Shown here: positions 1 through 55,130 of the stretch, one piece after another | How positions within the stretch are numbered: position 1 is the first letter of the stretch | How the letters are laid out: each line of letters begins with the position of its first letter | Program-made: the position numbers and the translations under genes | Notes under the pieces: generated by a model | Told to the model about the DNA's origin: nothing | Seen by the model: the letters and a program-made list of their open reading frames with translations, nothing else | Database searches by the model: none | NCBI RefSeq assembly: GCF_009834535.1 | Contig: NC_045696.1 | Location: 34,288,001-34,352,000 of the forward strand | DNA from: Camelus ferus | Taxonomy: Eukaryota | Direction of reading: 5' to 3' | Length of the DNA stretch: 64,000 nt

Positions 1-244
1 AGCATAGTGCCTAATGACAAAATTACACTTAAAATTGTTTTATGTATATCATGAATAAATTCTATGCAAAGCATATATTTCAGAATTCCCCCTCTGTTGA
101 AGGACAAAGCTAGGTGACTACTTACTTCCTGAAGGCCATATTCATGCATCTATAAAGTAGGGCTCAGAGTGTATCAGTACTGACAACCTCCCAATCTTGA
201 TAGTAAATCTCAGAGCTTTTACTCTACATTTATTCCACTGTAGG

Positions 245-331
245 TTAATACTTAAAGTGGAATTTCTTCAAATCTGCTCTTTTTATTCCAAAATAATTCA
301 TTGCTCTGCAAACTGCAGTCATCTTCATTAG
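245..331 (-). pseudogene. Putative next exon (LMKMTAVCRAMNYFGIKRADLKKFHFKY*); 3' boundary uncertain
   Basis: Follows an 89-bp intron (332-420) ending gagttcttag|, with phase-0 entry matching the upstream exon. A further strong donor GGAA|gtaagt lies at 126/125. Confidence 0.35.
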
Positions 332-420
332 CTAAGAACTCACAAGCTCAGAAGCTGAACTAAACTTCATTGCATTTTCATGGAGATAAAGTTGTCACAG
401 ACATCATTTATCTCTATTAC

Positions 421-491
421 CTTGTACTTTTCAAGGAAGATTTGTGCAGTGCGTCTAACTTTTTCACTTGAAAATTGCCAGAAGAACCACC
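421..491 (-). pseudogene. Putative internal coding exon of an unidentified - strand gene (71 bp, phase 1 to 0; (W)WFFWQFSSEKVRRTAQIFLEKYK)
   Basis: Acceptor ttcttcttttctcttggaacattacag| and donor AAG|gtaata. The frame is open and joins in phase with the 1113-1316 exon (T|GG = Trp). Confidence 0.7.
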
Positions 492-1112
492 CTGTAATGT
501 TCCAAGAGAAAAGAAGAAATGGAATTAAATGAACACAGAAATATCAACCTTAATGCCTGGAAATCAGACATACATTCCCAGGACCTTATCTAACAGGTAT
601 TGGAAGTTTTATTAAAATCCCCTGCCAGGGTAGTATGGCTTTGCTGTCCAAAAAAGTCTGCTTAAGATTCTTAACAGCTTTCCAAATAACCTACATTGCC
701 ACCACAGATGAAATATCTCTGCCAGGCACATCAGACTGATGGGAAAAAACCATAAACAAGTGCCAAATTGCATTCCCTAATGAATTCTCTTAGCATACAA
801 ATCCAGAGAGAGCAGCAAATTGAAATTTAAATTGGTGCCACGACTGAGGCAGATAACCAGGGGGATGGGAATTAGAGGTTGGAAGTGTCAGATAGGGATA
901 GAAACAAGGTAACTATTCTAATGAAAGATCTCATAAGAGAGAGACCCGGTCACAGGTAAGAGACTAAACACTTCATGGAAAAAAGCTTCATTCAGTGTAA
1001 ATAGTTGGAACAATGAGGTAGATGGATGAAATTTCACAGATACTTTTAATCAGGTTGTTAAGTCAACTTTGCTTATGGGCAAAACTATATGATCCTAAAA
1101 GACTACACTTAC

Positions 1113-1316
1113 AGTAGCTCAGATTTACAAAATATAAATAATCCAAATTATCTGGAACTTCCTCTCTCTGTATTTGAGGAACTTCCTCATGTTTTGTTTG
1201 GAGATGGTTGATTGACTTCTGCAAGAGAGGATTTGAGTTAATCAGAGATGGCCCCATATCCTTGCCTAGGATATGTTGAAAAATTTGAAACAATAAGGCC
1301 TTCAGAATATGCTGAC
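1113..1316 (-). pseudogene. Putative internal coding exon (204 bp, phase 1-1; GQHILKALLFQIFQHILGKDMGPSLINSNPLLQKSINHLQTKHEEVPQIQREEVPDNLDYLYFVNLSY)
   Basis: Acceptor ttttcactctcttcagttcag| and donor TACT|gtaagt. It lies inside ORF 1063..1350, is open, and has a length divisible by 3. Confidence 0.7.
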
Positions 1317-1645
1317 CTGAACTGAAGAGAGTGAAAATGTTAAGACGCACTGTTGTATACTCCGGTGTCTGCTACATAAACCTGGCTTTAGCATACATTT
1401 GTTAGAAGGCTAAATAGGTATTGATTCTAACCTTATTATTTGACCAGTGTTGTATCTATGACCATCACTCACCTATGTAGTAGGCTGAAAAACAATATAT
1501 TCTAAAATAAGCATTCTACACTTTTTTAAATGAAGATTTGTTAATCACTCAGTCACCAACCATGAGATTTGCAATATATTTGGAATGCCATGTTCTTCAT
1601 TATTTTTTTACCTGTATATCTATCTATGATAAAATATTTAATTAC

Positions 1646-1714
1646 CTTTCTAATATAATTTTCTTCAAAGAACATCCACTCTTTCAAATTCATCTCTCAA
1701 AAAACTAAAAGCAC
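1646..1714 (-). pseudogene. Putative exon with in-frame stops (69 bp, phase 1-1; AFSFLRDEFERVDVL*RKLY*K)
   Basis: Acceptor gaattttag| and donor AAAG|gtaatt. The phase matches the 1316 acceptor, but that frame contains TGA and TAG. Confidence 0.5.
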
Positions 1715-1964
1715 CTAAAATTCAGTGTTAAATGCTAATATTTTTGTTGCATTTATGAGACATTCTTCACATGTTGAAGCCCTAACTATTATGACAACTT
1801 GTAATCCTCACTATTTGGCTTTTCTTGGATGGAGAGAGAAGAAAGAGCTGGATGCTGAATTTGTCTGGTTGGCTTACAATGGCCACAGATGTTGATGCTA
1901 ATAATACAACAGTATGGCATGGTTAGTCATCTAAATGAACTAACATGAATACAAATTACTTTAC

Positions 1965-2271
1965 CAAGTAAAATTAAGTGCAATTCTATATGATATAGTG
2001 GCTGAATATTTTTTCTGTTTCCTCTCATGCTTTTTATCTTTCAGGTTTGAGCAGTGAACCAGCACCTTTGAATAACAGTGTCTTTATTGTTGATAAAGTA
2101 TTCCGAAATAAAGTTTCTAGAGTCCGAACTACCCAAAGCAATTGTGTTATGAAGTTAACTGTCAATCTGATTTTTCATCATTTTGTTTCCTTTTTAGATA
2201 ATTTTTTTCTTATCCCAAAAGTAATGTACATACTTCTTTGGAAAAGTTAGAGGCAAAGCTTAAAGAATAAT
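1965..2271 (-). pseudogene. Possible decayed exon (starts YSLSFASNFSKE...); donor either gtatgt at 2233 or gtaaag at 1964
   Basis: Acceptor ttttttattcattttttattaaaaatattgacag|. The long form has stops in all frames. Confidence 0.3.
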
Positions 2272-4869
2272 CTGTCAATATTTTAATAAAAAATGAATAA
2301 AAAACTAATAGTTCCTTATAGAGAGAAAACAATTGCTTAATCACCTCTCTCCTGGCACTCACTGATAATTCACTTGGAGACTGCTGGAAAGGGATGTGTT
2401 TATTAGACTGAAGAACTGAGTTGGACAGCAAATAATGTGTATGGTTATTAAAAATCAAACTTTAATGCATAGGTTGGAAAGTCCTCTTATTTGCATTGTC
2501 CTACAGCATTAGACAATGTCTACAAAATTTCCCAAATTATTAGTCAGATATAGAGTTTATCATTTCTGATAACAAGATTCCAGATAGGTAAATTACTACA
2601 AATTGTTTATTTCTAAAATAAACTATATTTTATAAAACTCAAAAGATTGACCATAGCCAAAAAAGAAAATCACAAGCAAATATGGATCTAGCATAAGCAG
2701 CTGTGTTAGTACACCCACAGGAAGTGTGATAATGTTTCTGAGTTGCATTATGGTGGGAAGTATCAAGAACACCATGGCAGTTGACACAGGCTAAAAAGGG
2801 TATCTGTAGGGCAGAAAGATAAGTCATGCTTCAGCACCTTCTCTCTTGTCCTCATTGTCTGTTTGTCCTCTAACTTAGGCACCTGGATTGATACAGTTCT
2901 TGGAGACTGAAGCAGGATTTCCCTGGGTGTCACCACTTCTGTGTGTAGGAATGAGGGGAGGGAAGGGAGTACTATGCGAATCCAAATATATGCTCAACAT
3001 TTAAATACTACAGCAGCACAAAGCAGCTGCTCAGTGAAAATTTTTGGATTAGTTGCTATTTTTTCTTCTACTTACTCTAGACTATTTGCCCCTTCTTTTT
3101 CTAGCTTTTTATGGAAGAAGCATAAAACATTGATTTTAGATTTTTCATATTCACAACTGTAAGGGTTTAGATTTCTTTAATTTCTCTCACTAATGTTTTC
3201 CCTGTAAAGTTTTTAGACATATTTTATTAGATTTCCTCTTAAGCCGTTGGTATTTTTCTTATGTTACTGTCTTTTACATTTCATGTTTAATTTTTTTTTT
3301 TTTTTTTTTTTGCTGGGAAAACAACTTTCAATTTGATTACATGTTCCCAGTAGTTTGTTCTTCTTGCTATAATCCTAGGAAGACTCTTCATAGGCAATGA
3401 TGAAATATTCATATATTCAAATAAATATTCATAGGCAATGATGAAATTCAAGTAAAAGGACAGATCTCTCCCAGTAGGAAAAAAATGTTCATAAACCCTA
3501 TAGAACAATACCTTATCATGGAAATGCTTCTGTAGTGAAAGAACTATTATCAGCCAAGAAAAAAGGTACTCATGACTGATAACCATATCTCCCTTTAGCA
3601 TAACTGGGACTTCCTCAACCTATTTATATAGCTATTACATTTCTGATAGTAAGTTAAATTTCACTGTTTCTTCTACCTAATACTGTAAGAATGTCAGCAA
3701 CTTGAAAATGGGTCATCCCATACTCCCTCTCCCAGCTCAGTTATTCTGCAGGTGACCAGAGAGGCTCACAGTTAGTACATGATCCAGCTATTTCCTACGA
3801 GGTGCTTCCATTACTCTTACAAGTAGTGCCACAATTCTGCAAGGACAGCTGCTGCTCACCAGATACTGCCAAAGACACAGGAGATTTTGTGTGCAGGGAG
3901 ATGTGCTCAGTCGTGGGAGAACTCCTCTCTGACCTGTGTTTTCCACTCTGCTAAGAGGATCCCAAAACTTTGACGCATGAGCATCAAAATTAATTAAAGA
4001 GAGCTTTAGTTATAACTCCTCTGCACTTTCTAGGGGCTGAGTTAGAAGGCAAATATAAATAACAGAAACTACAATATTCCCAATTTACTCCTGAGGGAGA
4101 GAAGTCTTAATGATTACCCATAATTTCTCTTACACATTTCCAATAGCACAGGAAGATTTTATGTAAATGTATATGATATATGCATGCTGTGTGTATGTAT
4201 CAGACATGGCATCTCATGAGGCAGATTTTTTTAAACCAACAAATTTGCATTGTTATCCAAAAGTTCATGCAAGTAGAAAGAAAACTTCCCCACTTAGGCA
4301 GAAATTTAAACACATGCACATACACACACATATAAAACAGATGTTCTTCTGAAAAGAGAGAGTCAGCTGTCATTTGTATTCCATAATTTGAAAGACATTG
4401 AAATGACTTTCATCTCACAATTTTCCTCACCTAATGTCTGAAGTTCAAGCATTTAGATTAATTTGTCCTAAGCTTTTACAGTTCATGTTACACTGAACAT
4501 GAAATGATTGACTAGGAGCACCCTGAGCTACTGTGACCTGGAAGAATATTTAAAAGACTTACAGAGGAGGAGTGATGTCAGCCATATACAAACTCAAAGA
4601 GGAATTCTTTTTCCCTGAGAAACTGAATCAGGAGATAATCTCCCTGCAGACTGGTAGAACACAGTCCTACCCAAGGCCACAGCATGGGCAGAATTCAGAG
4701 GCAGTGAGCAGGGATTGCCAAGTACTTAGATAAACTGAAGAGAGCGCTCTTTATATACATAAAAGGAGATGAAGCCGACTCTGTAAAACATGTAGCAGGC
4801 ATTTTTCAGACGAAATTGGAGGAAACAAATGTCCTCTATATTCCTCAGATAAAATTCTGGCATTTAAAT

Positions 4870-5560
4870 TGAACTTTGAATTTTTGCACTAATGTCACTT
4901 CCTCCTGAAAATCCAATAAATCTACCACAAGGGATTGTAAAGACATACCCAGTAAGCATGGAAGAACAGCAAAGTATACAACAGAAAACAAAGGAGAGAA
5001 CAGGTGATGGATACAGAATATCTAGAAAACTTAATTCAGCAAGTGAAATTGAGAAATAATCCAGTTTATACCACAGAATGCTCAGACATTTCTTGGATCT
5101 GTAGCACCAGATACCTCTATAACTGAGGCGGGACAAGGAAGCAGAAATGTCAAGAGGATTGGGTGAAGTTGAATGGCATCTGGATTGCCATCTTAAACTC
5201 CTGGATAAAGCCCTCTCCCACCAATTCCTTTACCCTCTCTATTTTTTCTGGAAATACAGTCATTAAAGACGGTATAGTAAAGAGCCTTTGTGGCAGAATA
5301 TGCTAGATACAGTTGAGGATCTGGCTTTATCCCGAAAATAGAGGGATTAGTGAACATATGTATTCTGAATGCTAAATGCTGAGGACCCCATATTCTCTCT
5401 ACAATTTGACACTCAAAAAGCTGATAGTCAAACTGTTAGTCTACACACAGATTATTAGAAGAATTTTCTCTAGGAAATCTGACAAGCCTAAGAGGAAAGA
5501 CCTAAAAACACAGACATGGAGAGGTTCCAACAAGTATCCCACTTAGATTACCTTAGTACA
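4870..5560 (+). mobile_element. Ancient L1M/L1ME-type 5'-region relic
   Basis: Motifs such as cacttcctcctgaaaatcc and ttctctaggaaatctgacaagcctaagaggaaagacc resemble old L1 5' ends. A similar stretch lies at 47440-48180. Confidence 0.35.
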
Positions 5561-5569
5561 AAGTTTCTC

Positions 5570-5845
5570 AAGAGTGACCATTATCAAAAAAAAAAAAAAA
5601 AAAAAAAAAGATAAGTGTTGGTAAGAATGTAGAAAAATTGGACGCATTGTATACTATTAATAGGAATGTAAAGTGGTTCAGTTATTATGAAAAATGGAAT
5701 GGAGTTTCCTCAAAAAAATAAATAAAAATAGAATTTCCACATGATATGGCAATTTTACATCTGGGTATTTTATTATCCAAAGAATAGTATTCCATTGTAT
5801 ATAGATGGACCACATTTTGTTTATCCTTTCATTCATCAATGGGAA
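5570..5845 (+). mobile_element. L1 ORF2 3' fragment with a short inverted L1 segment (about 5786-5843)
   Basis: aagtgttggtaagaatgtagaaaaattgg...cctcaaaaaaataaataaaaatagaa on +, then gtattccattgtatatagatggaccacattttgtttatcc, which is L1 antisense. Confidence 0.75.
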
Positions 5846-5879
5846 AAATAGAAAAATATTAACAAAATACTTAGACATT

Positions 5880-7085
5880 AAGGAACACTGTCTTAAAAAC
5901 CCATATAAAAAGGAAAAAAAGTCAAACTGATACTATGATTCATCTGTAAAGAGAAAGGGCCACTCAAGAAACAGAAACCCAAACAACTGAGAATCAACAT
6001 AGGGCAAGAGCCTCAACCTTGGTATTATTCAGGGAAATGCAGATTACAGCAACAGTGTGCATCATATTTCAGTTATCAATTTAGAAAAATGAAAGTGCTA
6101 TTTCATTTAATGCTGACAGATGAGTGGAATAAAAATTGCTTTTTCATACCTTACTAGTGGGATTCCAAATTGATAAAACTTTTTTGAAGAATACACATTA
6201 TCCTTTGACCCAACAACTCAGAAATGTAAATTAATGCTTAAGAATATATTTACAAAGCTGTTTCTAGAAACAGCTGTTCTAGAAAAACCTGTGGTGACAA
6301 AAAAGTTAACATCTTAAAAGCCCATCAATTAGAGAATAATTAAATTAACTGTATCACAGTCACTATTCTGTGTAATATTATTGGCTTATAACAAGATGAC
6401 TTGGGGAAAAGAACTTTTCCTTTGATTTAGAGGAATACTGACACCGGTCCATGTAGCTCACAGTCGGGAAGGTGGATTAAAGCAAGAGAATTACAGAGAG
6501 AAAAAATAGAATCAAAGAAAATGAACAGAGCATCAGCGTAGGATACCTTCAAGAAGCCTAATATGAATGTTAGAGGAAAAAAGTGTTCAGTAAATAATGA
6601 ACAATATTTTTCCAAATTTGCTTTAACTAAAAATTCTCATATCCAACAAGTTTAATAAACTCCTAGGGAAAATAAAATAAATGAAGAAAACTAAAACAAG
6701 GCACATAATAATCAAACTACCAAAAACCAGTATGACAGAGAAAAACAAAGGCACCCAGAAAAAGAAAGATATACTACATAGAGAGAAGTAAAGATAAGGT
6801 GATGGCAGAGTTCTCATCAGAAGCAATGCAAGCAAGAATTACAGTGATAGAAAGCAGGTCCATTGTTGCCTGGGAAGGGAGGCATGAAAAGGAGAGTAAG
6901 GGAGAAATTACCAAGGTTCAGAAGGAAATTTTGGAAGTCAGGGATGAATCATCACCTTGATTGTGAGTTTCATGAGTTTAACACCTATGTCAAAACTTAA
7001 TCACTTTTCAATTTTAAACAAATTTATCACTTTATACACTTTAAATATGTGCAGTTTATTGTATGTAAATTATATCAATAAAAAA
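5880..7085 (+). mobile_element. Mosaic of old L1 (L1ME-type) ORF2, ORF1 and 3'-end fragments
   Basis: cagggaaatgcagatt, an ORF1-like aggcacataataatcaaactaccaaaaacc, and a 3' end gtgcagtttattgtatgtaaattatatcaataaaaa. Confidence 0.65.
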
Positions 7086-7724
7086 AGTTCTGTTTGTATA
7101 TATATGAATCATAGAGCTGTGGCTCAGTTATCATACATGTGTGACATATACACATATGTCACATATACACATCTGTCATATATGTGTATACATATATGGC
7201 ATATGTGCACAATTTATGACATATTTTATATATGTCAGACATATATGTAACAGCTGTGCCACAGCTCCAGAAGTACCATGGTAGAAAAAGCATATTTAGG
7301 AATATGATATCAGAAAATTCTCCTTGCTATCATCTTTAGAGGTCTTTCTAGAAAAATATAATCTTTCTCTCTCTCCCTTAAAGAATTTGTTTTTCCACCT
7401 GGATGCTGTGACATCTATAAATAGCTAAAGTCAGACTTAAAGCTAGTGGATATTGAGAATAATTCAATTCATGATAAGAAAGCAGGCATTCTGTCCTCTC
7501 CATAGAAATTAGAAATACCTGGATCAAATATCAGAAACATATATAATGTTTTCAATTGTGTTGAACCTAAATCATTTTATTTTAACTACAAAATTCCAAG
7601 TGTGTAATTATATAACCATAATTTTAAGTTGAAAGTCCTATTTTAGGTTTTAGTCATTATATAATATGAATACATCATACCTGTAGAACCAGAGCCTCAG
7701 AGCACATCAAAAAATACAAAAGTA

Positions 7725-9034: not shown

Positions 9035-9155
9035 TTATTGTCCTCTTATGTCAGCTGGGGAGATTTTAGGCCCAGAGAGGGCAAGGGTAGTTCTCAAGTT
9101 CATACAGCAAATAGTGGTAGGGCCAAGAGTTGAACTCAGATCACCTGTCTTTCCC
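9035..9155 (-). mobile_element. MIR fragment
   Basis: aggcccagagagggcaagg...caagttcatacagcaaatagtggtagggccaagagttgaactcag matches the MIR core. Confidence 0.7.
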
Positions 9156-9574
9156 AGCGTTGCTGCCTTGGTTGGGCAGTTTCAGGAGTGGGGGCAGTCA
9201 TCCTGGGGAAATTGAGGGGTAGCTCAGGGGTTCAGGGTTCAGGGCTCAGGGTGATTACCCTTTCGTGAAGCTAATACCTTTTGAAACAGTGGTAAGAGGT
9301 AAGGTTTAAAAACATCTTAAAACTATATGGAGAACATGAGAGAAGTAATTCTCAGGAGTACAGCTGCTTCTTTAACATTCATTATGTACAAGTTTGATCA
9401 ATGACTAACCATTTTTAAAACAATGTCTCTCTTATTTTGGAATTTTAATAGGTCACACTTTCAATCTGTTTGTGTACTTAGTATTAAATATTTACCTCAA
9501 ATATTTAAGTAGTGAGGTAAAATAACTATTGCATTGATATTAATCAACACATTCACATTCATGTTTTAACCTAC

Positions 9575-9677
9575 TCAATTTAGTTGAAGTTTGCTTTTGA
9601 GCACATTTAGACTTGGTATAACTATGAGTGTTCATTTCATTGATGCACAGGTATTTGGACTCGCAAACTCCATGTCT
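9575..9677 (-). pseudogene. Candidate exon (103 bp; RHGVCESKYLCINEMNTHSYTKSKCAQKQTSTKL)
   Basis: Acceptor gcagtattttag| and donor TTGA|gtaggt. One frame is open, and the segment is not in a recognisable repeat. Confidence 0.3.
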
Positions 9678-10914
9678 CTAAAATACTGCATTTAATTTTC
9701 CTCATTGATAGTAATGATGTAGGGATTTATCTGTTGATACATATAGAATGATTAAACCTTACCCTTCTAAAAGACTTAAGCATAGTTCAAGGAAAGGAGA
9801 AAGGCCACGGTCTGTGTGTTTATGGATGTACAGTACAATAGAGACAAGAAGCTATACTATTAAAAGGTATATATATAAATTTGTTTTGCCCTAAAAATTG
9901 TTACTTTTCTAAGTGTTTTTAAATGCTCAGTCCATTAGTAGCTTGTATCTAAAAGCTCTGAATTTGTGTTTATTTTTTACTCTTTTTTGATATTGGTTTC
10001 ATATTGTGTCTCTAACTGCTTTATACTTTCAAAATACTCTTATGCAAATATGCCTTAGTATTAGTGTTAGTATTAGTACTAGTCTAGTAATAGTTTTAGT
10101 ATTCCGAGAAGTATTTCTTCTTAGTATCAGACAGGACCAGGGGTATTATGTTACACTACTAAGGCAGTTTTGGTAAGGTCAAGGCAGCTCTTCAAAGGTC
10201 TTTTTTTTCACAACTAATGTATATTTAATTTGTATCTCTCCACCAACCAATACTGAGGATCATCCTTACAGTGATAAGTATATCTTCTAGTAATTCAGTG
10301 AAGAATGCGTTTTAAGTATTCTCAAAAGCACAATGAAAGGGAGGAAAATAAGTAACCAATACACAATTCTTGTATTATAGAATTATTCAAGTAGTTGTAA
10401 ACAACTATTAAAGTTTACTCAAACTGCAGGTTGTCCTTGAAAATAGATATGTTAACACTTTACAATTTGGGGTAGATGTCAACTGTAGTTTTAGCACACC
10501 GTTTGTAGTAATTTTAGAAACTAAGATTTGTAAATTTGACACTGAAAATGCTCTTTTTAGTCCCTTCCTAGACTATATCTGATATTGAAATAAGTTCTTC
10601 CAAACTAGACAGGTTTGCATCTGATTTAAAAGCTGGGCTTTATTAGTATGTAGTGAACTGCATTTTAAGAAGCAATATGTTTTCCACTGAATTAGACTTT
10701 TTACTAATTACTAAAGCAATGAATATTAAATAATTGCTGAGTATTGTATCATAAAGAGAAAACAAAGAAAAGTCTAGACCAAAGTAACTATCTAAAAACT
10801 ATCATTAATATCCAGTGACTCACTGCTTCTTTAACTATGGCTTTCCTTCAGGGCTAAATTATTTACAGATAATTCATGCTAAACTCATTACCGAAATCAC
10901 AAGACTTCTGGAGA

Positions 10915-11364: not shown

Positions 11365-12875
11365 GGAGAGACACATGGTTTTGATGGAATTTCATGGTTT
11401 TGAAGGAAGGACCTTCACTTTTAATTTCAGATTCAGTTTTCTCTATTTGCCTTCTCAGAAGAAAAGCCCTATTTACTTTTCTATTTCCTCTATGTCTCTC
11501 TCTCTCTCACTTATGAAAAAGCAAATAGCAGAGAAAGTATGTAATAATGTGATGGTATTGACCTATAAAAATCCAATCATGGTGTTTTATTAAATCAAAA
11601 GTTTTCTTGACAGTTCTTCATCATCTCCTGCAAAGAGAGATTTCCAATATTATTTGATAAATTTAAATTGAATAGTCAGATCAAATTTCCCTGCACTTTG
11701 TGAGAAGACTTAAAGTTTTTAAAATTCCTCTTTTGAACTTAAAATTATTTTGCAAAAAGAAATATGAAAAATGCCTTATTTTGTTGTTTACATCATTGCA
11801 TATAGAAAAAGCACTCTTAGCCAGAAACCATCTATTTCACACTTTTATAAACTAATCAAGATGTCAGAGATTTAGCAAAAAACAAAAGTACATTTAGATG
11901 ATCTCTTTAAGAAAGTATTTAATGCAATCATAAAATAGACTGTGATGTTTGTGATGGATACTATTTAATCCACTAAATCTGGAAAGTCATCTGTAGGAAG
12001 GTAGGTGATATCAAGAAATACACTCATTCTTATTGATGTCAGTGTTCATAGAACAGAAATCATCCTTATCCTTCTTTCCCATGGGTTATTCTTTTTAGGT
12101 CTATATGTCAAATTCACAACCTGTGAATTTAACTATATTAACATTTTTTTTCCTTTCATTTTAAAAGTTGTATCAGGAAGAATTTACATTTATCTGTGAG
12201 TAACTGAACCCCAGCATGTGCTCTGTAGCTGGCAAAGGACTAAGAAAAACTACATGCCACATTTAAAGTCTAATAGATTAATTGGAAAAAGAAGTGTTAC
12301 TTTCTGTAGTTATTCCACAAAATGTTACCATTAACTTCTAAAGAAACATAGTACAAAAGTAATTTTAAAAATCTAGAATAATCAAGTATTCAATACTTTA
12401 GAAACTTATCTTTTACCGAAAAAATTACTCTTAATATATGTAAAACTGGAACTAATACATTTCAGTTACTTTGTATGCCTAAGAAATAAAGTATAATAGA
12501 AGGCAAAAATATTTATAAGAAAACATATATAAATTCTAGTTGCAAACTTCCAAGGAATCAATATTTAGTATGATTTGCTTCAATTCTATTCAGAAATGGA
12601 ATAAAGATATTAAATATTTTTGTGTTACTTATAAATTTGAAGTAGAATATAAGATCTAGTTTCATAGACCTATAATTTCAGAAAACTGTGGATAAAAATT
12701 CCAATAATAAGCCTCTCTTTAAGCCTGAAAACTTTTGAAAGAAGTGGTAGATTGGTTGGTTGGTTGGTTGACTGGTTTTTATAAGTAATGATAATTTTAG
12801 GACTTTTTTTTAACTACCCTAATTTCTTTCAGGATACACCTCACTTAGGAAAAATCACAAGTTGGGAACAGATTA

Positions 12876-16520: not shown

Positions 16521-16656
16521 TTTTTTTTTAAACTTTTTAGGGGGAGGTAATTAGGTTTGTTTGTTTATTTATTTATTTTAATGGAGGTAGTGGGGATTGA
16601 ACCCAGGACTTCATGCATACTAAGCACGCACTTTACCGCTGCACTATACCCTCCCC
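16521..16656 (-). mobile_element. Camelid tRNA-derived SINE (Vic-1 type)
   Basis: Reverse complement reads ggggagggtatagtgcagcggtaaagtgcgtgcttagtatgcatgaagtcctgggttcaatcccc, then (TAAA)n, cctaattacctcccc and an A tail. Confidence 0.9.
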
Positions 16657-21281: not shown

Positions 21282-21899
21282 AATTTAAAGTGGACTTGCA
21301 ATATCATCTACAAATGTAAACTAGTAATAATATAATTCATACTTCAGGATGGGGAGAAAGAGGACGTAAACCTAGAACAGCTGTGGGAGTCAACAGGTTT
21401 AGGGGTGTAAGGGTGGCATTGAAGAATAGAGGTGGGAGATAAAGGGAAAGATTATATTCAGTTGAGTAGAACAGAGTCATAAGTTCATGTTCAAAATAAT
21501 GAAAGAAAAATTTGAAACATTTTTAAAATAAATTAGCTCATGAAATGCTTGAGACAGTTATTTTTTCTCCGTAGCTTCTTCCTCAACAGCTACTTCTAAT
21601 GATTTATTTTTTTCTACTCGGGAATGCAGAGAGCGGGAAGAAATAGTTCTCATGCTTAACAATAGAAAAATTGCTGGCTAACTTCACATTCATGAATTTT
21701 TTTAAATCTGTCATAGAACTGAAGTCACCTAGCAATCAACCGGCCCAAAATCTAAGGACACACACAGGCACACACGCAGACAGCGTGAGAGGCGTGAGTA
21801 CTCACTTACCTGGGGTAACTATCAGGTCTGTTACACCTCTGCCACCAGGGGTGGCCGATAAGCCCTGATAAAGTTCTGGGCCTTGGAACTAGGTTGCAG

Positions 21900-24130
21900 A
21901 TTCACAGCCATTAATTCCTTCAGCAGTTCAGATCAGCTATCTTTGGCACCCCATCACCAAAGATAGGCCCCAACATATTCCTGGACTCTTTCAGTATTGG
22001 GGCAGTTTATGCCCCACTTCAAATTCCTACTTGATCTCGTTGACTGACCTACAAATCAGCTCGTTTTGAGTTGCATCCTAATCAAAAGTCCCATTAGAAA
22101 TTTTCCAGCAAATTATAAGACGTTCTTTACCTTTGGGTCTGACAATCCTAATGACCTTCTTGAGCTACAAATTTCTATGACTGATAATTTTGCCTATCAA
22201 AATCCCCAGCAATGGGAGGTAGTCACGCCTCAGAAGTCCCTCTTAAGGCTTTGGAATCCCTGTTGCCCACACAGCTGCTCAATACAGCATTTCTGATAAA
22301 CAGCTATTAGCATACTGTTGGGCTTTATTTGAAACCAAACACCTTATCAGAAGGGCCCTGTGAGTCTCTGAAATAACATGCCTATTTTAGAGTCAATTCA
22401 GTGTCCACAACTAACAAGATAAAGCATGCTCAACAAGCCTCACTTGTCAAGTAGAAATGGCATATTCATTTGGCCCCAGCAACATCTTAGCTTACATGAG
22501 AGACTGGCAGCTGTATCTGCAAGGGACACTTCATTCCCCACTCCACTGCCTGAAGAAACGCTGCCTGCTCAGTGACTTCTCATGTCACTGAGATTCCCCA
22601 CAATGCCCAGCTCTGCTAAACTGAAACCTGATGGTGTGCACAGGGCTCTGCAGGCCCAGCCTTGGACCAGCTGGGCCAAACTGAAAAGGACTGTGTTTAT
22701 TCTATACTGTGGGCAGATCTCAAACTGTTCTCTAACTCAAATACTCCCCTTGATGAACTTTGTTATATTTTCACTGACTTTTGAGCTGTTGCAAAAGGCA
22801 CAGAGGTGTGGTCAGCCACATGGTAAACTATGGACGGTCAGATTAAATGCACCTTTATTTGGGGCCATGAAGTGTGGAAATGAGGCTGTGAACCAAGCTA
22901 TCTGGCCCACTTCTACAGGTGGCCATGATGAGGATTCATTCTCTGATGAGGCCAGCTGGAATCATACTGCTGACTGAGCCCACACTGCCCAGATTATCAC
23001 AATCACTGCATAGATTCATTACTGTATATGGGATATGGCAATCCATCCACCGTCATATCCTGGGCACAAGGGAAAGCATTCTGTTTCTGATGAAGGGGCT
23101 ACCACCACATGCCAGATTCTTGCCAAAAGTAAACCTGTTGTCTTGAGGCAGGAGGGATCAGATTGCTTCGGGCTTGGCCTCCACCCAGTACTTTCAGGTT
23201 GATTGCGTTAGCTCCCTAATCCCCTTATTGAGGCCACTAATGGTGCCTCACTGCTGTCAGCACAGTTCAGGCTATGGAATTTCTGTCCCAGTCCAGACAA
23301 AGGCCTCCAGTCACACCATTGTGACCCTTAAAATTAACCTCTATTGTGTGTCTGACTTTCTGGACCATTTGCAGTCTGACAGTGGTGCTCCTTGCATCAC
23401 AAAACTCACTGGACAGTGTGCACAATGCCCTGATAGGTATCCGGTGGATTTTCCACACTGCCTACCATCTCCAGGCATCCAGTATTCTTGAGCATTGGAA
23501 AGGCCTCCTGAAAACCAGCTCAAAAAGATTTCTGAGTCTACTTCCCTCATTTCCTTCTAGTCCACATACTTAAGGTAGTTTGGTCATTAAAGGAGCATCT
23601 AATGGTCAGGATGGAAGTGGTTGGGGGGATATGTAGACCTGTTTTGAAAGTTTGAGATTCCAACCTGACCAGTCCTGAGCATTATGTTTTCTTCTTTCCC
23701 TTAACAGCAACCTCAGGCTGGATGCGTTAGTACATTCTCTAAGTGGCAGCTGAACCGAAAGTGGACTCAGAGGATTCAAATGAATTCTGTCTGGCCCAGA
23801 CACCTGGATTTTCTCATTGAATGTACATAGTTTTTTAACTTAATAACAAGGACTCTTTGGTTGAGTGCACTATGCAACAAACCCCTTACAGTAACCCACA
23901 TGACTCCAATAGGGGATATGCTGGGTTTCTGAAGCTTTTATAAGAATGTCCTATCCTTCTCACACCAGATCCTTCTGGATGAAAGGTTTAGATGACAATA
24001 GACAATGGCTGAAAAACAGTGACATTATCACTACTGTAATAGGACCTACATATTTTACAGCCATGGAGAGAGCATGACAACCGTGGCACCTTTAGGAGGG
24101 AACATCTTAAACCCAGGAGATGTGAGAGAG
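21900..24130 (+). mobile_element. Degraded class III (ERVL-like) retroviral pol: RT connection/RNase H and integrase
   Basis: Fragments translate to the RNaseH-linker KQLLAYCWALFET and the integrase QVD...SGYG...LQSDSG and IRWIFHTAYHLQASSILEHWKGLLKT (ORFs 23174..23491 and 23346..23573). Confidence 0.85.
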
Positions 24131-24534
24131 GGAGGGAGCTTAGTGATCTTTTACATTTCAAAATTGCCCTGGATAGCTTCTCTGTGGATTTTAACTGACT
24201 GCGGGGTTTCCTATCCCTACCAGAGGGCTTTGACAGTGCTTTGATCACCATTCCCCGAAACCATCCAGGAAGTCAATTCAAAATAGCAGGGAAAGACCCC
24301 ATATCCCACATCTCCCTCATAAAACACGTGTCAATACTTCTAGATGTCTTTTTCACCCTTATTCTTATAGCTGTTGCTCTAATGCTCCATAGGACAGACA
24401 AATATCCCCCAGCGGGTGGCATGCAAGAACCAAACAGATCAGCCAAATTGCCTGTAGGCAGTCTCTCCAAAAGCAAGGATTAGGCTCAACTCTTCAGAAT
24501 GAACTGGGAACTACACCAGATGGCTGGGAGATGG

Positions 24535-24845
24535 TGTAGGAGACACTGTTGACTTGTGTCTCCTGATGAATGTGGGTCCCACTTGGGGGATTCTTACAAT
24601 TGTAAACAATTTCTTTCCAAGATTACTTTACCCTATCCCCGTGATGCTTCTTATGCAGAAGCCATCATTAACTTTCCTCTTTCCTTCAAGCTTTAAGGGA
24701 ACACAATCTGTAAGGGATGTAGCCCTAAGACAATGGCTGTGGAGATCTCTTCAAAATGGCTACCATCAGTACCTTGGGGGAGCTTCCCAGAGGGGTATCT
24801 GCTCATGATTCATGAGTACTAAGTGGGCAGTTTTACCTCCAATGA
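24535..24845 (+). mobile_element. Probable 3' LTR of the ERVL-like provirus
   Basis: Purine-rich ggctgggagatgg (PPT-like) is followed immediately by TG (tgtaggag) downstream of pol. The 3' boundary is approximate. Confidence 0.5.
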
Positions 24846-24994
24846 GAGTCATTCCTTTAGAAAAGATGATAGAGATTTATAAGATTAACTTGCTGCATGT
24901 GGAGTTGTTCATACCTCCTCATAACCAGACAGCAAGCTCTAATACCAGTCACCACTGAGTGGGTTCTTTCATGAATATAAGCTTGGCAATCAGC

Positions 24995-25130
24995 TAGTCT
25001 CTCTGAAAGACATGAGTTCATATTCCAGATGTGCCACTTAAGAATGGAATGACCTTGAGAAAATCAGTCCACTTCAATCTTTTGGATTGTTTTTTTATCT
25101 CTGAAAATGTGGATAATATTACCAAAATTG
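24995..25130 (+). mobile_element. MIR fragment
   Basis: agacatgagttcatattccagatgtgccacttaagaatggaatgaccttgagaaaatca...tctctgaaaatgtggataata. Confidence 0.7.
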
Positions 25131-25470: not shown

Positions 25471-25797
25471 TATTGCACTACAAATTTCTAAGAAAATAAA
25501 TGTTTTTTTGAACACGGTGTGAGATTACTAAAGTATCTTTTTAAAAGCATTGAATCTATTTTAAAGAATTCTAAAGTGCCATCTTTTAAAAATGCATTAT
25601 ATATAGTCTCACCTTCTTTAAAAAAGTACTCGAAATACGTTTAGCCATTTATTGATAAATTAGGATTACTATTATGGTCATAGAGTATCATAATGCACTA
25701 TAAATACTGAATAGTCCTAAAATATTCACACCTCATGATTTTTAGATTTAGAGCTTCAGATATGTGGGCAACACTCTTCCAAAATCTGAGAAACACA

Positions 25798-31636: not shown

Positions 31637-31691
31637 CTTCAAAGTTCAAGTAAACTTCCTTTATCCTTAGTTGATAAATTTGCTTTTAGTT
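31637..31691 (-). pseudogene. Candidate exon with a stop (55 bp; LKANLSTKDKGSLLEL*)
   Basis: Strong acceptor tttttaattctcccttccttcag| and donor GAAG|gtattg. All frames are closed; the best has a TGA that could be a CGA>TGA CpG decay. Confidence 0.45.
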
Positions 31692-42600: not shown

Positions 42601-42637
<37 letters not shown>

Positions 42638-46503: not shown

Positions 46504-46611
46504 AAAATACATACTATATAGCACCACATAACTACTCTTAATAATACCTTTGACTTTAACATTAAATCAATATACAAAACTGTTTTTTTATTAATGGTGT
46601 TGTGGGAGGAA

Positions 46612-46790: not shown

Positions 46791-48773
46791 GTGTCGGTAG
46801 CTGTTAGTAGAAGTAATAGTAATAACCATTATTGTTCAATTATGATTACTACCAATTTCCCATATTCTCCTGAAAGTTCTGCGAACAGGATAATCTAAAC
46901 TTTGTTATTAATAGAGTGGTGCCTCTAGGTTCTACAACAGATAGCTTTAAAAAACGTTTTTTCTTTCATTTTATATCAAACAGTTATAGAATAATAAATG
47001 TTTTTCATTATGTAGAAGAAAACATAAGGGCAAACAATAAGCATAAATAGCTGATCTGAAGGCCAATAGTATATGACACAATAACATAACCCCCTCTCTG
47101 TGGTATCACCATTTAGAAAAGAACATTAAAGTAAAAGGAAAATAGAGCTAGATGTATAGAAAACAGGAGACTAATAGAAATTGGAGTGCCAAAAAGAAGA
47201 GAAAGAGCAAGAAAGTAAACAAATGCAACTAAGAGCAAATAATTCTTAATTATTATATCAACTTAAAAATGGACAGTTTCAGTTATGACAATAACATAGA
47301 AAAGGTAAAAATTACATATAAATTTTGTATGTTGTAGTATCATATCATAACATAGCATAGTACATAATAATATATTATCAGGGCCAAACACTATGTATTT
47401 TACAGAGAGATTCTCTTTTAACTTTGAAAGGTTAATTAAACATCATGTATTTGTGCATTTATCCATAACACCCCTGCTAAAAAGGCAGTTAAGAAAGAAA
47501 ATGGCATTAAGCCACAAGGAATGAAACAACAGGAAAGCAGACATTAGGTTTCCATGTTTTGCTAGGAGATGGGAAAACTGAAAGCAGGTAGATGAGTGGT
47601 AGCTGGCTCCGCCACACCCGTGAGAGGCTCAGGACAAGCACTGGGCATCTTAAAAAGTGAGTATAGCACAGTCCCGAAAACAGGTGTATTGGTTAGAAGT
47701 CTTCTGTGTATAATGGAAAACTATGGCTAGGTCTTCTGACTGTGCATTGTAGCCAGGCAGTAATTTCTCTATCCTCACCCCACGAGAAAGACGGGGGAGT
47801 TATTCTCCAGGAAAATTGCAGCAGAGATTTTCCTGCACAAAAAAAACGCCAAGCACGGAGGCACGGCATAGAAAGATTAAGTGAAATTTTACATAATAAA
47901 GAGTGGAATCCCCCATTACCTTACCCCTTACTACTCCCAGAATGCTTCAAAAAAAGAGACTGGAAGATTCTTCTCTGGAGTAATTGAACAATCCCAAATA
48001 ACAGACATTTTCCATGGAATATGCAGTTCACTGATCCATCAATTTTAATGAAGCCCACTCTTAGGTAGGTACAACGTGGCACACAGAGCTTCTGTATCCC
48101 ACTTTTAAATATTAATGAATATCCAAACAACGTCAGACATTTTAAGATACCTCCAATATGAAAAGCAGAGAGTGACAGCAAGGGGAGGAGAAAGGAGAGA
48201 TATTCTATACAGTATCATTGAATGACACTGTAAAAGACACCAGATAATTTAACAAACATCATTTTTGAAAAACAGAAGTTAATGGATTTTATTTTTAAAG
48301 ATATGTACCTAATATATTTCTTCATGCATATGTTTCAAAAATTACTGAGCATCTTCCAATTTCTAGGCATAAGGCAAATTACTAAGGGTGAGCAAAGATG
48401 AATGGAATAGTTTTTACTTGAAATAGCTCAGAGTCCAGAAGAAAACAGACAAATACACAAACACAAATTAATTACAACAAAGTGTGATAAATGATAAAAT
48501 AGTAGAATGAACACAGCCTGAGGTACAATAGAAACAATAATTAAATGTTTGGGAGAGTCTGCTTCCCAAAGCAGCATTAAATTATACTTTAAAACGAATT
48601 CACTAATCCTATTTCATATGTAAATATGTGCTTAAAGTAATACAAGGAAACATTTATAATTTAAAAGTGTTGAGAAGTTTTTTTTCTCTTTGAAAACTAG
48701 AAGCTTTATGGGTGAACCCTGTTCAGAGAAGCTGTCTACTTCATCCCAGTGTGCTTAGTAGGACTTCACTTAC

Positions 48774-48904
48774 AATAGCGGGCTTACTCATACTGATCAG
48801 CTGCTGCCTTAGGCTCTCTGTGTTCAACTTTGGACTATTACCATGATGGCATTTTAAATGGTTACAGACTTGGCACGGAGCTTTGGACAAATTGTATTAA
48901 AATC
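48774..48904 (-). pseudogene. Candidate exon with an apparent 1-nt frameshift (131 bp; DFNTICPKLRAKSVTI/LKCHHGNSPKLNTESLRQQLISMSKPAI)
   Basis: Acceptor gcatttcccacag| and donor TATT|gtaagt. Length is 132-1, and adding one T in ATTTAAAA gives a fully open phase 0-0 exon. Confidence 0.45.
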
Positions 48905-48983
48905 CTGTGGGAAATGCACTTAATTAAACAATAATAATTTACCAAAACTTTTACTAAGCTGTTAAGTCTCATGTCACATTTTT

Positions 48984-50486
48984 ATTTTTATTTTTATTTT
49001 TTTAACATTTTTTATTGATTTATAATCATTTTACAATGTTGTGTCAAATTCCAGTGTTCAGCACAATTTTTCAGTTATTCATGGACATATACACACTCAT
49101 TGTCACATTTTTTTCTCTGTGAGTTATCATAACATTTTGTGTATATTTCCCTGTGCTATACAGTGTAGTCTATTCTACAATTTTGAAATCCCAGTCTATC
49201 CCTTCCCACCCTCCACCCCCCTGGTAACCACAAGTCTGTATTCTCTGTCTGTGAGTCTATTTCTGTCCTTTATTTACACTTTGTTTTTGTTTGTTTGTTT
49301 GTTTTTGTTTTTGTTTTTTTTTAGATTCCACATATGAGCGATCTCATATGGTATTTTTCTTTCTCTTTCTGCCTTACTTCACTTAGAATGACATTCTCCA
49401 GGAGCATCCATGTTGCTGCAAATGGCATTATGTTGTCGGTTTTTATGGCTGAGTAGTATTCCATTGTATAAATATACCACATCTTCTTTATCCAGTCACC
49501 TGTTGATGGACATTTAGGCTGTTTCCATGTTTTGGCTATTGTAAATAGTGCTGCTATGAACATTGGGGTGCAGGTGTCATCCTGAAGTAGATTTCCTTCT
49601 GGATACAAGCCCAGACAATACTATAGAGCTACAGTCATCAAGACAGCATGGTATTGGTACCAAAACAGACATATAGACCAATGGAACAGAATAGAGAGCC
49701 CAGAAATGAACCCACAAACTTTTGGTCAACTCATCTTTGACAAAGGAGGCAAGAATATACATTGGAATAAAGACAGTCTCTTCAGCAAATGGTGTTGGGA
49801 AAACTGGACAGCAGCATGTAAAACAGTGAAGCTAAAACACTCCCTTACACCATATACAAAAATCAACTCAAAATGGATTAAAGACTTAAACATAAGACAA
49901 GATACAATAAACCTCCTAGAGGAAAACATAGGCAAAACATTATCTGACATACATCTCAAAAATTTTCTCCTAGAAGAAATAAAAGCAAGAATAAACAAAT
50001 GGGACCTAATGAAACTTACAAGCTTCTGCACAGCAAAGGAAACCAGAAATAAAACAAGAAGAAAACCTACGGAATGGGAGAAAAATTTTGCAAGTGAAAC
50101 CGACAAAGGCTTGATCTCCAGAATATATAAGCAGCTCATACGACTCAATAAGAAAAAAATAAACAACCCAATCCAAAAATGGGCAGAAGACCTAAACAAG
50201 CAATTCTCCAAGGAAGACATACAAATGATCAAAAAGCACATGAAAAAATGCTCAATATCACTAATTATCATAGAAATGCAAATCAAAACTACAATGAGGT
50301 ATCACCTCACACCAGTCAGAATGGCCGTCATTCAAAAATCCACAAATGACAAATGCTGGAGAGGCTGTGGAGAAAGGGGAACCCTCCTACACTGCTGGTG
50401 GGAATGCAGTTTGGTGCAGCCACTATGGAAAACAGTGTGGAGATTCCTCAAAAGACTAGGAATAGACTTACCATATGACCCAGGAA
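48984..50486 (-). mobile_element. Young 5'-inverted (twin-primed) L1 with a 15-bp TSD
   Basis: (TTTTTA)n tail and antisense 3' segment at 48984-49614, then a sense ORF2 segment at 49612-50488 (uninterrupted 265-aa ORF). TSD tcatgtcacattttt at 48969-48983 and 50487-50501. Confidence 0.96.
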
Positions 50487-50896
50487 TCATGTCACATTTT
50501 TAAAAAGTACACATATAAAGATATAATAAACTTATTTTTAAAATAATCACAATTTGTTCTCCATCAAGGACACATATTAATCAATCTTTTAAACACTAAT
50601 GTCGGATAATTCTATTACATTTTAAACACTTGGAGTCTACGTTTTTGTCCTAGTAAATTTCCATTAATTACAGTAGAGTTTGTTTACATATATTAAGAAC
50701 TGGCAATGATCCAGCTATAGGGTTTTACCTTGATTTTTCAAAAACATCCTTTTTTAAATTGACATTATTTCTATAACTGCATCTATGCAGAAATAACCAC
50801 AGGACATAGGAAAAGAAACAAAGACCTGTTTATTGTTAAGTACATGCTGATTTTTTCAATATTCCCATTTGATACTCCAATTGGCTGAGTACTCAC

Positions 50897-51179
50897 TAGT
50901 ACAAAAGCATGCAAAGTACCCTGTCTGGTTGACCAGAAGCTGTTTAGTTGTAAATTACACTTCTATGAACTATCTTCTCTTTAAAATTTGGCTTGCATGT
51001 ATTGACAAGTTTCTGATCAAAAGATTAGCAACATGGAAGATAACTTTATTGTGTCAAAACCTGATGATTTTGCTCTGATTTTCTTGCTTTCTTCACATAA
51101 ATTTAACTTTTTGTTGTTTAACAGTTTACCCTTTCTGTGGAATTTCATACATTGTATCCAAGTACACTCAAGGTAACTT
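50897..51179 (-). pseudogene. Candidate 5' exon of the - strand unit, containing an ATG (MYEIPQKG...)
   Basis: Strong acceptor tctttctttctccag|, with donors at gtaaac (51129) or CTA|gtgagt (50896). The long form has multiple stops. Confidence 0.35.
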
Positions 51180-54084
51180 CTGGAGAAAGAAAGATTTGGC
51201 ATTATTCCCATTTGAAATTTAGAAAGCCTGAATTGGAAGAGATTGGATACCTTATTTAAGTTACCAAACTGGTTAATGGCTTGACGAAATTGAGTCAAGT
51301 TAGTTCAGTTCTAATGCAAGTCTCCTTCATGATCTTTATACCTAGTTTTCTCATGAATACAGGGAGATAACTGTAATTTTCCAGTTGCCATACCAAATAC
51401 AGAATAAATGAAAAATTGTGAAATGGTATTAAAAATATTAAGATTAACATAAACAATGGCTGTAGGTAAAACACAATTATAATGTAACTGAGAACTGCAT
51501 CAAAATTACTAAGAAATATGAATTTATTGATATTGACTATCTATTGAGATAATCTGAGTTTTTAGCTAGAGCGTTGGATTATATAGCACTTTAATGTTGT
51601 TAATGTTTCTTTAACTGAACTTGGTCAACTGTAGTTTTCCTATTGTACAATCATAGTAGACTTAGTAACTACTTGTTTTGACACATCACATATTCTTCAA
51701 CATTTTTGCCCAGCTATACTATAATTATAGTGTGTGAAACACCATGCTGCAATTCTTTCAGTTGTGGAGACAAAGAAAAACGTGGCAATAGATAAAAACA
51801 TTATTTAAGAGTTGGTGTTTACCTTGTTCACTACTTCTCAACTCATTTTTAAAGATTAACTAACTATGGCCCAATTCACAGTTCTATAGTGACAAACCTG
51901 GAGCTTTCTAGTTAAGTTGTCTGTCTACCCCATCACTTTGCACATACTTGGAAATAACTCATGAATTTAGCTAACTAGAAGGAGAATTTTAATGATTTAT
52001 ATAAAAGAATCTATCTAAATTATGAAACCAATTTTTCTGTTGCTATTTTAGTTATGATAGTATTCTCTAGAGACTAAGCAAATACTCATTATTTTATGAC
52101 ATGGATTATTTCCCAATCCAGTCTTCCCTGCATATTATGGAATTATTAAATTATATTTATTCAACCTCTTCAGACCTTTCTATTTGACTTCCTTCCAAAA
52201 GAAGGAGCAATTATCTGATGAATTTAATGAATGAATAAATTCAATCTGAATAATTACAGAAAAATAAAATTCTTTCCCATAGACTTAGGAAGAGTTTCCT
52301 TACTTTAGTGCTTTAATTTGTATTATGAGTTTTCATTTTATTCTGCAGTATTTTTTCCAAAATAAAAAAGGGTACTTAAAATAATGCTTTTAAAAAGTGA
52401 CTTTTTGATGTCATGGAATGAGTCAGTGGATCTTACTTGTGAGGTTTATGAGGGCAAGTTAATCTTCTGTAGTTAGCCAAATAACTCAAGGAAAACATAG
52501 CCATTAAGGAAAGGTTACAGAATTTAGGCCCACAGTATTTGTGTCCTGTCTACATTACTTACATCCTTTCACAACTTTCCAGCTTTTTCATTAATTTTGC
52601 ACTTTTACAGTTATCTTAGTGCAGTCAGCTTAATTGAAAGAAACAAGGGAACTTCAACTTAGTCTTAACTAAGTTCAATATTATCAAAGTAGTATAATTT
52701 AATTAAAATTCCTTTCTGACAAAAGATCAAGAAATAGACTATTAATTTCTTGCCTATTAGTACATTTGTCCCCACATATGTAAGAAAAACAATAAACAAG
52801 ACCTTTAAGCACTGATGCTTTCTGGATCTTTTATCTAAGCTTTCTTTGGAAAGAACCTGTTTGTGATAACTTAATTCATCCTAAAGAGTTTTAAAGCTGT
52901 GAACTTAAAACTGACTGAGATTCTGGCCTCTTTCTCACTGAGATTCAGGATTTTAAAATGTAGTAACTTATCTAAAGAAGCAGCCCAGTTACTCACCCTC
53001 TACTTACTCAGAGTGACCCTGGCTGAGTGTTGCGACTGGGTCTTGCCTGCTGGGTCGAGTGTCTGTGCACTGAATAGCAAGTGGAGTATCTCTAGGGCAC
53101 AGTGACTTATTGCAGCCTGCAAGGTGCGTTTTCGTTACTGATGCCTAAGTAAATTTGTTCGCTGCACTAGCAATAGCAGAAGCATCTGAAAACTTACGTC
53201 GCCTTTACATCATAGGTGAGATTTTTCACGCATCTTCACTGAATACAATCTACCCCCCCCCCAGATATACTACAGAATTGTTAGCTCCAAATGCACAAGT
53301 CCACACATGGCATTCAGAAACATCCTTCTGTGTAGAAAGTACATACATTCCTGATCTGTTTGTTGAGTTGATATAACCTTGGACTCTCTCCATGGCTGTC
53401 ATCTACAAGATTTGTTACAAATTACTCTGGGTACAAGTGTAAAATCAGGGTGGTCAATGTCATATCTTCTAGGGAAATTACTGTGTTCTATTAGGAAAGT
53501 TATAAATCTTAACTTACTCTGGCATTATTTTCACTCTGCTCTCATAAATGAAGAGCCATAGCCACATAGTCAGATATTTATGAGACCAGGGCTGGGACCA
53601 AGCAAATTATGACACAGGGAATTAAGATTTAAGAATTATGTGGGAGAGTAAAAACGTGAAGTAAATGCTAATGATGATCCAAAATCATTACCTGTAAAAG
53701 TTCAGCTAACAGTTCTTGAGTACTAAATGACAAGCATTATGTTTAGTGTTTTATATATAGGATCTCATTTAAATATATGATGTCAGAGAGCAAGGATGAC
53801 CTCAACAAGAGAAGAAAGATGGGCTGGAAAATACATGTTTAGTCTATGAGAAGCATTTATAGAAGATCATCTTTGAATGGCAGAAAGTTTTGTGAGATGG
53901 GAGAACAGAAAGCAGCTTTCAATGACAGGAGTTCCTTTTGGTGAGAAAGGATCTGGGATAGTCAGATCCAGGGTAAACTATGTCTTGGGGTGGGTCCACT
54001 GGTGGATTATGGGGGTGTTGCTTCATACAAAACATCTGTCCCAACATTGGCGAACTCTTCCAGTGCTGGAAAACTGACACCTTC

Positions 54085-54720
54085 TATTACAGAATCAAAT
54101 TTGGGTCTACCCCTCTACTCACAGTAAAGCCAATCTACTGACACTGGGTTGTGGTAAAGGAAAGGGTAGCAGATATTGCAGAGCACCAAGCAGGGAGTCC
54201 AGGCAGCTAATGCTACAAAACTCCAAACTCCCTGATGGCTTCCAGGGAACGGTTTTTAAAGACAAGGGTGAAGGAGAGAGGTTGTGGGTTACTGTGATCA
54301 GCTGGTGGACATCCTTTTGATTGGTTGGTGGTAAGGCAATTGAGAGTCAACAGCATCAACTTTCTGGTTTCAATTCATCTGGGGTCTGTGTGTCTATGGG
54401 CAGCATACAATTAACTTCTACCTGGTGGAGGTTTTAGTAACTGCAAAACAGCTCAAAGGATATGGTTCAGAATTTTATCTACAGCCCTTGAGGAGGTACT
54501 AAAGGTCCTTGACTTTGTTTAATGGCTAAACCATTACTATTTTGTTTTGCTTGACTGTTCTCCATTCTTTCTGTATTTTCTCACTTCTCTGATTAAATTT
54601 ATTTTTTTTTAACTTGGGGAAAGCCTAGGGGGCTAGTTTTTCTACAGACAAGGGGCAAGTGGAGGACATGGGGTGGGGATGTGGGGTCTACCCTGGGAAG
54701 GCCTCATAGGGTCCTGCTTC
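54085..54720 (-). mobile_element. ERV1-class solo LTR, MER41-like (cetartiodactyl type)
   Basis: aaagccaatctactgacactgggttgtgg...caggcagctaatgc...ccctgatggcttccagggaacggtttttaaagaca...gattggttggtgg...gggtcctgct. Confidence 0.7.
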
Positions 54721-54964
54721 CAAGAAGCACTCAAGTTTCTAGGATCAGTCAAAGCAGGTCTAGTTCTCATAGGCTGGAGCTGAAGGGACTCAGTCTACTG
54801 GGCTATGAGTCATTGATCTGAAAAGGCCATGAACAATAAAGGTCAAGTATTTTCTCAAGGTCAAATCTAGGTCAAAACACTGCAGATGTATTCCAACTAT
54901 CTAAAGAGTAAATCTCTAAGTGATGCCTTAGACTAAAGCCTTAACTAAATCCTGGCCCCATTAC

Positions 54965-55130
54965 CCCGCGTATCTCCCTTCTCCTTTCGCCCTCTACCTC
55001 AATTCTTTTTCAGGACATGCCTGCTTTGTGAAGTTGTGGATATAGAGAACTCGGTCCATTCAGCGACTGGTTTGCAGGCCCACTTCCGAAGACCGCCCCC
55101 AATTACTCCCTCTTCGCTTTCCGTACCTCA
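54965..55130 (-). promoter_or_regulatory. Candidate divergent promoter and first exon for the - strand unit
   Basis: ETS site cacttccg (55081) and GC box accgcccc (~55092). Minus-strand donors CGGG|gtaatg (54965/54964) and GAG|gtacgg (~55126). Confidence 0.4.

Follow-up and report, generated by a model that had tools for sequence, protein, structure and literature searches.

Frame-compatible exon-like segments divergent from a CpG island in Camelus ferus as possible remains of a decayed multi-exon coding gene

In the 64,000-nucleotide (nt) stretch of Camelus ferus DNA analyzed here (assembly GCF_009834535.1, contig NC_045696.1, positions 34,288,001 to 34,352,000; hereafter the window, numbered from its first letter), a series of exon-like segments on the minus strand runs leftward from the edge of the only CpG island, and several of these segments share one reading frame. 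Our tentative reading is that they are what erosion has left of the exons of an old, intron-containing protein-coding gene, whose loss extends beyond camels, and that the unit now gives at most a divergent non-coding transcript. This reading is preferred because of the continuity of the frame, the TGA-rich stop codons that interrupt it, and the splice donor located at the island edge. A decayed coding gene had been proposed in the original prediction, which was made from the letters alone; it stands as the most likely single reading, whereas no homologous protein was found. The candidate exons, from the island leftward, are the following.

55127..55164, minus strand: 3' part of the candidate first exon, donor AG/GTACGG at the island edge.
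48774..48904, minus strand: candidate exon, 131 nt, AG and GT ends, frame uncertain (one TAA, or a frameshift).
31637..31691, minus strand: candidate exon, 55 nt, phase 1 to 2, one TGA, AG and GT ends.
25732..25785, minus strand: candidate exon, 54 nt, phase 2 to 2, open in the frame of the chain only.
11563..11627, minus strand: candidate exon (65 nt, phase 2 to 1) with a pair of adjacent TGA and a weak donor.
1646..1714, minus strand: candidate exon (69 nt, phase 1 to 1) with a weak acceptor, interrupted by TGA and TAG.
1113..1316, minus strand: candidate exon, 204 nt, open; alternatively 1316-1266 alone, 51 nt, with a GC-type donor and the same phases.
421..491, minus strand: candidate exon, 71 nt, phase 1 to 0, open.
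126..195, minus strand: candidate exon (70 nt, phase 0 to 1) interrupted by one TGA, with a GTAAGT donor and a poor acceptor.

As predicted, the segments 48904-48774, 31691-31637, 1714-1646, 1316-1113, and 491-421 have AG and GT ends on the minus strand; the last three are compatible in phase, and the 204- and 71-nt segments are free of stops in that frame. The stops described for 1714-1646 (TGA and TAG) and 31691-31637 (TGA) were also present. A 1-nt deficit claimed for 48904-48774 is possible, but another frame gives a single TAA and no deficit. Moreover, three further segments (25785-25732, 11627-11563, and 195-126) keep the frame of the chain. The donor at 55127 had the highest score among the nine segments scored, and the true start of the unit presumably lies within or near the CpG island, while further exons may lie beyond the left edge of the window.

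When seven of the minus-strand segments were joined, the chain of 195 codons had 6 stops, compared with 15 and 16 in the other frames and with 12.9 expected from the background (P = 0.024). Five of these stops are TGA and one is TAG, against a background TGA share of 0.31 (P = 0.012). A selenocysteine reading of the TGAs was rejected by reasoning, since a TAG is also in frame and two of the TGAs are adjacent. Regarding amino-acid composition, the best-of-three-frames p ranged from 0.019 to 0.28 across five segment sets and two models, with the chain containing the 204-nt segment leaning toward protein (p = 0.019 and 0.089).

The tests against chance were performed on the 31,850 bases remaining after repeats were masked by eye, with crude splice matrices, and with null sequences simulated by order-3 and order-5 Markov models. 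Under strict donors, the stop-free compatible pair formed by 1316-1113 and 491-421 (at least 91 codons) was equalled in 0/300 and 4/300 simulations, and the triple in 0/300 under both models; the donor classes of this test were fixed after inspection of the data. When a weight-matrix cut-off was applied instead, one that narrowly excludes the real pair, stop-free pairs arose in 4/200 and 3/200 simulations. Hence, the pair and triple exceed chance under strict settings only, and looser tests favor nothing. The local cluster of segments is a 1-2% event per window, notable and not decisive genome-wide, since by our arithmetic hundreds of such windows are expected in a 2-Gb genome. The many AG-to-GT segments of the original prediction are real; their number is at chance level, with 25 outside repeats on the minus strand (15 on the plus strand) against null means of 19 (order-3) and 28 (order-5). 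Strong donors numbered 52 on the minus strand vs 31 on the plus strand, and the strand skew outside repeats was small.

Some other features of the segments were recorded. In the 204-nt segment, whose limits are uncertain because acceptors also occur at 1321 and 1218 and a GC-type donor follows 1266, an 11-nt word is repeated at 24-nt spacing (1195-1160, minus strand), which looks like the remnant of an old in-frame tandem duplication. A 28-nt segment (35965-35938, minus strand, AG/GC end, one TAA) could speculatively bridge 48904-48774 and 31691-31637, with phase 0 to 1. Furthermore, strong acceptors and donors cluster in a GC-richer patch at 9202-8720 on the minus strand (9202-9145, 8983-8843, and 8749-8720), which lies outside the frame chain and for which the chain search gave high scores on both strands.

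A homologue of the region was identified in another genome. The 67-amino acid (aa) translation of the 204-nt segment, compared with 1.84 billion protein representatives, returned a single match, P0001 (149 aa, E = 2.4e-4), a singleton from a 5.2-kb contig. Because its alignment to window positions 1335-980 crosses the 204-nt segment and continues into the intron, P0001 seems to be genomic DNA from the orthologous region of another mammal. It keeps the acceptor-side camel frame for the first 17 codons, to about 1266, then passes through the two other frames (one of them read by hand) and returns, and five residues are missing from it across the donor at 1113. Where camel has the 1266 donor, its residues imply neither GT nor GC. 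From this alignment, the copy is not a working exon, and being broken it argues against a loss restricted to camels. The inactivation in this lineage, as originally predicted, is contradicted in part: the only homologue is also broken, and its exon is no better conserved than its intron. This lineage evidence is one homologous sequence, and two sequences cannot show which lineage has the older frame.

Several results weigh against a decayed coding gene. The seven-segment chain was picked afterwards among 113 candidate segments, so that its P values are flattering. When stops were allowed, the best minus-strand chain was equalled in 13/60, 8/30, and 9/30 null sequences, and an ab initio chain search placed the plus strand above the minus strand (185 vs 166, and 112 vs 92), mostly with other segments. 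The divergence of P0001 is equal in exon and intron (by hand count, 8/17 residues match at the start of the segment and 13/21 just past the donor). Protein searches gave no support either: the 67-aa translation matched 0/12 candidate proteins scored, and the multi-segment profiles matched 0/279 proteins of 119-2000 aa and 0/2224 proteins in a set limited to 694-2000 aa. No Pfam family passed the cut-off and no PDB entry matched, in both cases with short queries of low power. Simulated neutral decay also gave at least 5 stops without a frameshift in at most 1/150 runs at each of six distances; the decay template had one CpG, and the fast CGA-to-TGA change was therefore absent from this simulation.

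The ambiguity at the end of the 204-nt segment adds to this. The AG/GCAAGG after 1266 is a GC-type donor that yields a 51-nt exon (1316-1266) with unchanged phases, and the frame changes of P0001 all lie 3' of 1266; the true exon may be of 51 nt rather than 204 nt. If so, the length of the open frame would be fortuitous and the searches less powerful. The 51-nt chain has 6 stops in 144 codons, with about 9.5 expected and with 12 and 13 in the other frames, and its composition is unremarkable (p = 0.08-0.17). Assuming that Z equals the database size and that the word filter is passed, simulated orthologues under the 204-nt exon were found in 10/10 cases at 50% identity by phmmer and in 10/10 at 60% by profile. 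In contrast, under the 51-nt model phmmer found 0/20 at every identity, and the first profile found 19/20, 9/20, and 0/20 at 90, 80, and 70% identity, respectively. Since this power is low and the search of 2224 proteins was limited to 694-2000 aa, a living orthologue of 119-693 aa with less than about 80% identity may be compatible with the searches.

Other candidates were discarded. The Pfam matches to CNPase and OTT_1508_deam were sub-threshold (E about 0.08), and FAM227B, CATSPERE, DEPDC4, CCDC148, and others were dropped, as their sequences seemed unlike the segments. In the ESM Atlas, neither the 67-aa segment (recognition 1218) nor the 48904-48774 segment had a match. A metagenome match, L001, the one that passed among 409 pattern matches, is a bacterial gene with one short shared word and no DNA similarity to the window; we take its region 9073-10321 to hold a ParA-like bacterial gene and, after it, a 191-aa gene that resembles a phasin gene, as an unrelated chance match.

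A serious possibility, somewhat less probable than a decayed gene, is that the region never coded: neutral DNA, perhaps giving a divergent non-coding RNA, in which the 204-nt stretch merely happens to be open and the remaining segments were selected to fit. Indeed, besides the chance-level count of exon-like segments and the loose chain tests, a single open segment of at least 67 codons arose in 22/300 and 35/300 simulations, a cluster of this rarity is expected in hundreds of windows of the genome, and P0001 diverges alike in exon and intron. Likewise, if the 204-nt exon is right, a homologous protein at 50% identity should have been recovered, and none was. What this explanation accounts for poorly is the triple that strict donors never reproduced, the grouping of four compatible segments within 1.6 kb, the TGA bias among the stops of the chain, and the opening of 25785-25732 in the needed frame only.

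Two further explanations retain a coding frame for longer. In one, which we consider improbable, the loss is recent and camelid, and an intact, fast-evolving orthologue (119-693 aa, or unannotated) exists elsewhere, with the exon at 1316-1266 followed by a GC or former GT donor. A chain of 435-588 nt without a frameshift fits a short decay, as 20-40% of simulated runs at distances of 0.03-0.06 were free of frameshift, and with a fast CpG-to-TGA change such a short decay would fit the stops as well; the low power of the searches under the 51-nt model, with the stronger profile covering proteins of 694-2000 aa only, and the position of the P0001 frame changes point the same way. Against it, P0001, with 8/17 matching residues before 1266, has no recognizable donor there, and, if the neighbor is HTR1F, no coding gene lies between POU1F1 and HTR1F in the available parts of a mouse table (PMC7298343) and a sheep gene list (PMC13238802). 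The stops, in turn, are consistent with an old decay, but the undamaged frame is so only if chance built part of the chain. Least likely is a live remnant, translated from the ATG at 1257 through 491-421 and either leftward beyond the window or to the stop in 195-126 (about 90 residues). The 204- and 71-nt segments are open and in phase, and this ATG has a good Kozak context (G at -3 and +4), but the upstream segments carry earlier ATGs and stops, P0001 falls out of frame just past the 1257 ATG, no such protein occurs among the 1.84 billion representatives, and an exact look-up of two unspliced open reading frames (ORFs) in the protein collection returned 0/2.

The window is AT-rich mammalian DNA, and the following features were delineated at and near the head of the minus-strand unit.

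55301..55960, no strand: CpG island, presumed bidirectional promoter, GC at least 55%, observed/expected CpG at least 0.65 (200-bp windows), GC boxes.
55480..55695, plus strand: ATG-less first exon of a gene, probably HTR1F from its position, GTGAGT donor at 55696.
48969..50502, minus strand: young 5'-inverted L1, 16-bp target-site duplication (identical 16-nt repeats, halves in opposite orientation).

The CpG island anticipated at the head of the unit was thus located at 55301-55960, and 83 CpG were counted in 55001-56000. The first exon on the plus strand is GC-rich and its 5' end is approximate; downstream of it, no coding exon was recognized on this strand up to 64000. An 8-bp GC-rich unit is present four times in this exon (55617-55648), a possible length polymorphism of the 5' untranslated region. 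We take the window to lie on camel chromosome 1, in a HSA21/HSA3-homologous region near POU1F1 and HTR1F, according to cattle and human coordinates. In the available part of a sheep gene list, the order is VGLL3, CHMP2B, POU1F1, HTR1F, and CGGBP1 (PMC13238802); the mouse table has Htr1f, Pou1f1, and Chmp2b as rows in its available part (PMC7298343); and HTR1F is described in part of another source as having introns upstream of its coding part (PMC12441578). Based on the chromosomal placement, these upstream introns, and the sheep gene order, the window probably lies just upstream of HTR1F, which is likely the plus-strand gene. A divergent long non-coding RNA (lncRNA) was defined as one whose start is no more than about 1 kb from the first exon of a gene in a CpG island and whose direction is opposite; judged by sequence features, the minus-strand donor at 55127, the plus-strand first exon at about 55480-55695, and the island at 55301-55960 have this arrangement.

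The element at 48969-50502 is presumably an L1, and Pfam gave no match. Its 3' end, which is in the sense orientation of the minus-strand unit and carries four AATAAA, lies 65 bp short of the acceptor at 48904. Sense long interspersed elements near splice sites are selected against in genes, according to part of one report (PMC3088655), and the placement of this L1 is compatible with insertion once function had been lost, and just as much with a region that was never functional. Relative to the unit, five L1s are antisense and two are sense, too few to count. At 21840-25000, a GC-richer block resembles a decayed internal region of a long-terminal-repeat element, with stop-broken frames and two ORFs without a Pfam match. 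Rfam, run on 2400-64000, gave one transfer RNA match (16582-16653, minus strand, 30.2 bits, just above the cut-off), most likely the head of a camelid transfer RNA-derived short interspersed element.

With regard to transcription, eight RNA or probable-RNA runs contained 0.21-0.61 of the words of positions 100-2400. The contigs of these runs total 677-939 million letters, vs about 1,970-2,000 million in runs with a share of 0.99. A share near 0.35-0.45 is predicted by the contig total for anywhere in the genome, and such values are therefore background and not evidence of expression.

Returning to the eroded coding gene, an ancestral multi-exon protein-coding gene would have shared a bidirectional CpG-island promoter with the plus-strand gene, probably HTR1F. 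Its frame may have been lost by point mutation, mostly to TGA, perhaps at CpG sites, and this loss would have occurred early or more than once, without being confined to camels. At present, the unit would make no protein and at most a divergent non-coding transcript. A bolder version, rather unlikely in our view, is that a vertebrate protein family without an annotated member survives in readable form only in these segments; its gene would have been located head-to-head with HTR1F, lost early or repeatedly in placentals, and best kept in slowly evolving camelid DNA, and the HTR1F island would still produce its transcript.

Divergent (promoter-upstream) lncRNAs from CpG-island promoters need no reading frame. 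The camel unit resembles them in its donor at the island edge and in a mild excess of minus-strand donors and antisense L1s, and differs in that several of its segments share one frame. Such lncRNAs arising from promoters are mentioned in the available text of a study in which the chicken gene LOC768855 was found to be lost in placentals, leaving a lncRNA divergent from DPH5 (human LOC102606465) (PMC5577775). Like that case, the camel unit is multi-exon, placed head-to-head at the promoter of a living gene, with its coding capacity gone. However, in that case 17 non-mammalian vertebrates have the intact ancestor, LOC768855, and the lncRNA was observed (PMC5577775), whereas both are hypothetical for the camel unit. 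Similarly, the candidate exon-intron structure of the camel unit, its scattered nonsense codons, and the absence of an intact copy within the window recall unitary pseudogenes and gene-loss relics, while these each have a named working orthologue and none was found for the camel unit.

In the supplements of PMC5577775, where the lost-gene list consists of Ensembl ids only, HTR1F, POU1F1, CGGBP1, and six neighbors are absent, as are human coordinates near the presumed start of HTR1F. A total of 33 human loss-derived lncRNAs have been reported in the available part of another study, one supplement of which had no match for the region (PMC10195156). No paper on a lost gene or an antisense unit at this place was found in the literature searched, a human lncRNA name ascribed to the region appeared in a single unrelated table, and supplements or preprints may hold relevant gene-loss tables.

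In brief, objects of this kind are well known, and the evidence does not separate the camel unit cleanly from chance. If the coding ancestry is true, the unit would represent an unrecorded gene loss, and its unnamed protein might be recoverable from marsupial, bird, or reptile genomes. If, in addition, the placement is right, it would account for how a divergent transcript arose at the HTR1F promoter, HTR1F being a drug-target receptor gene.

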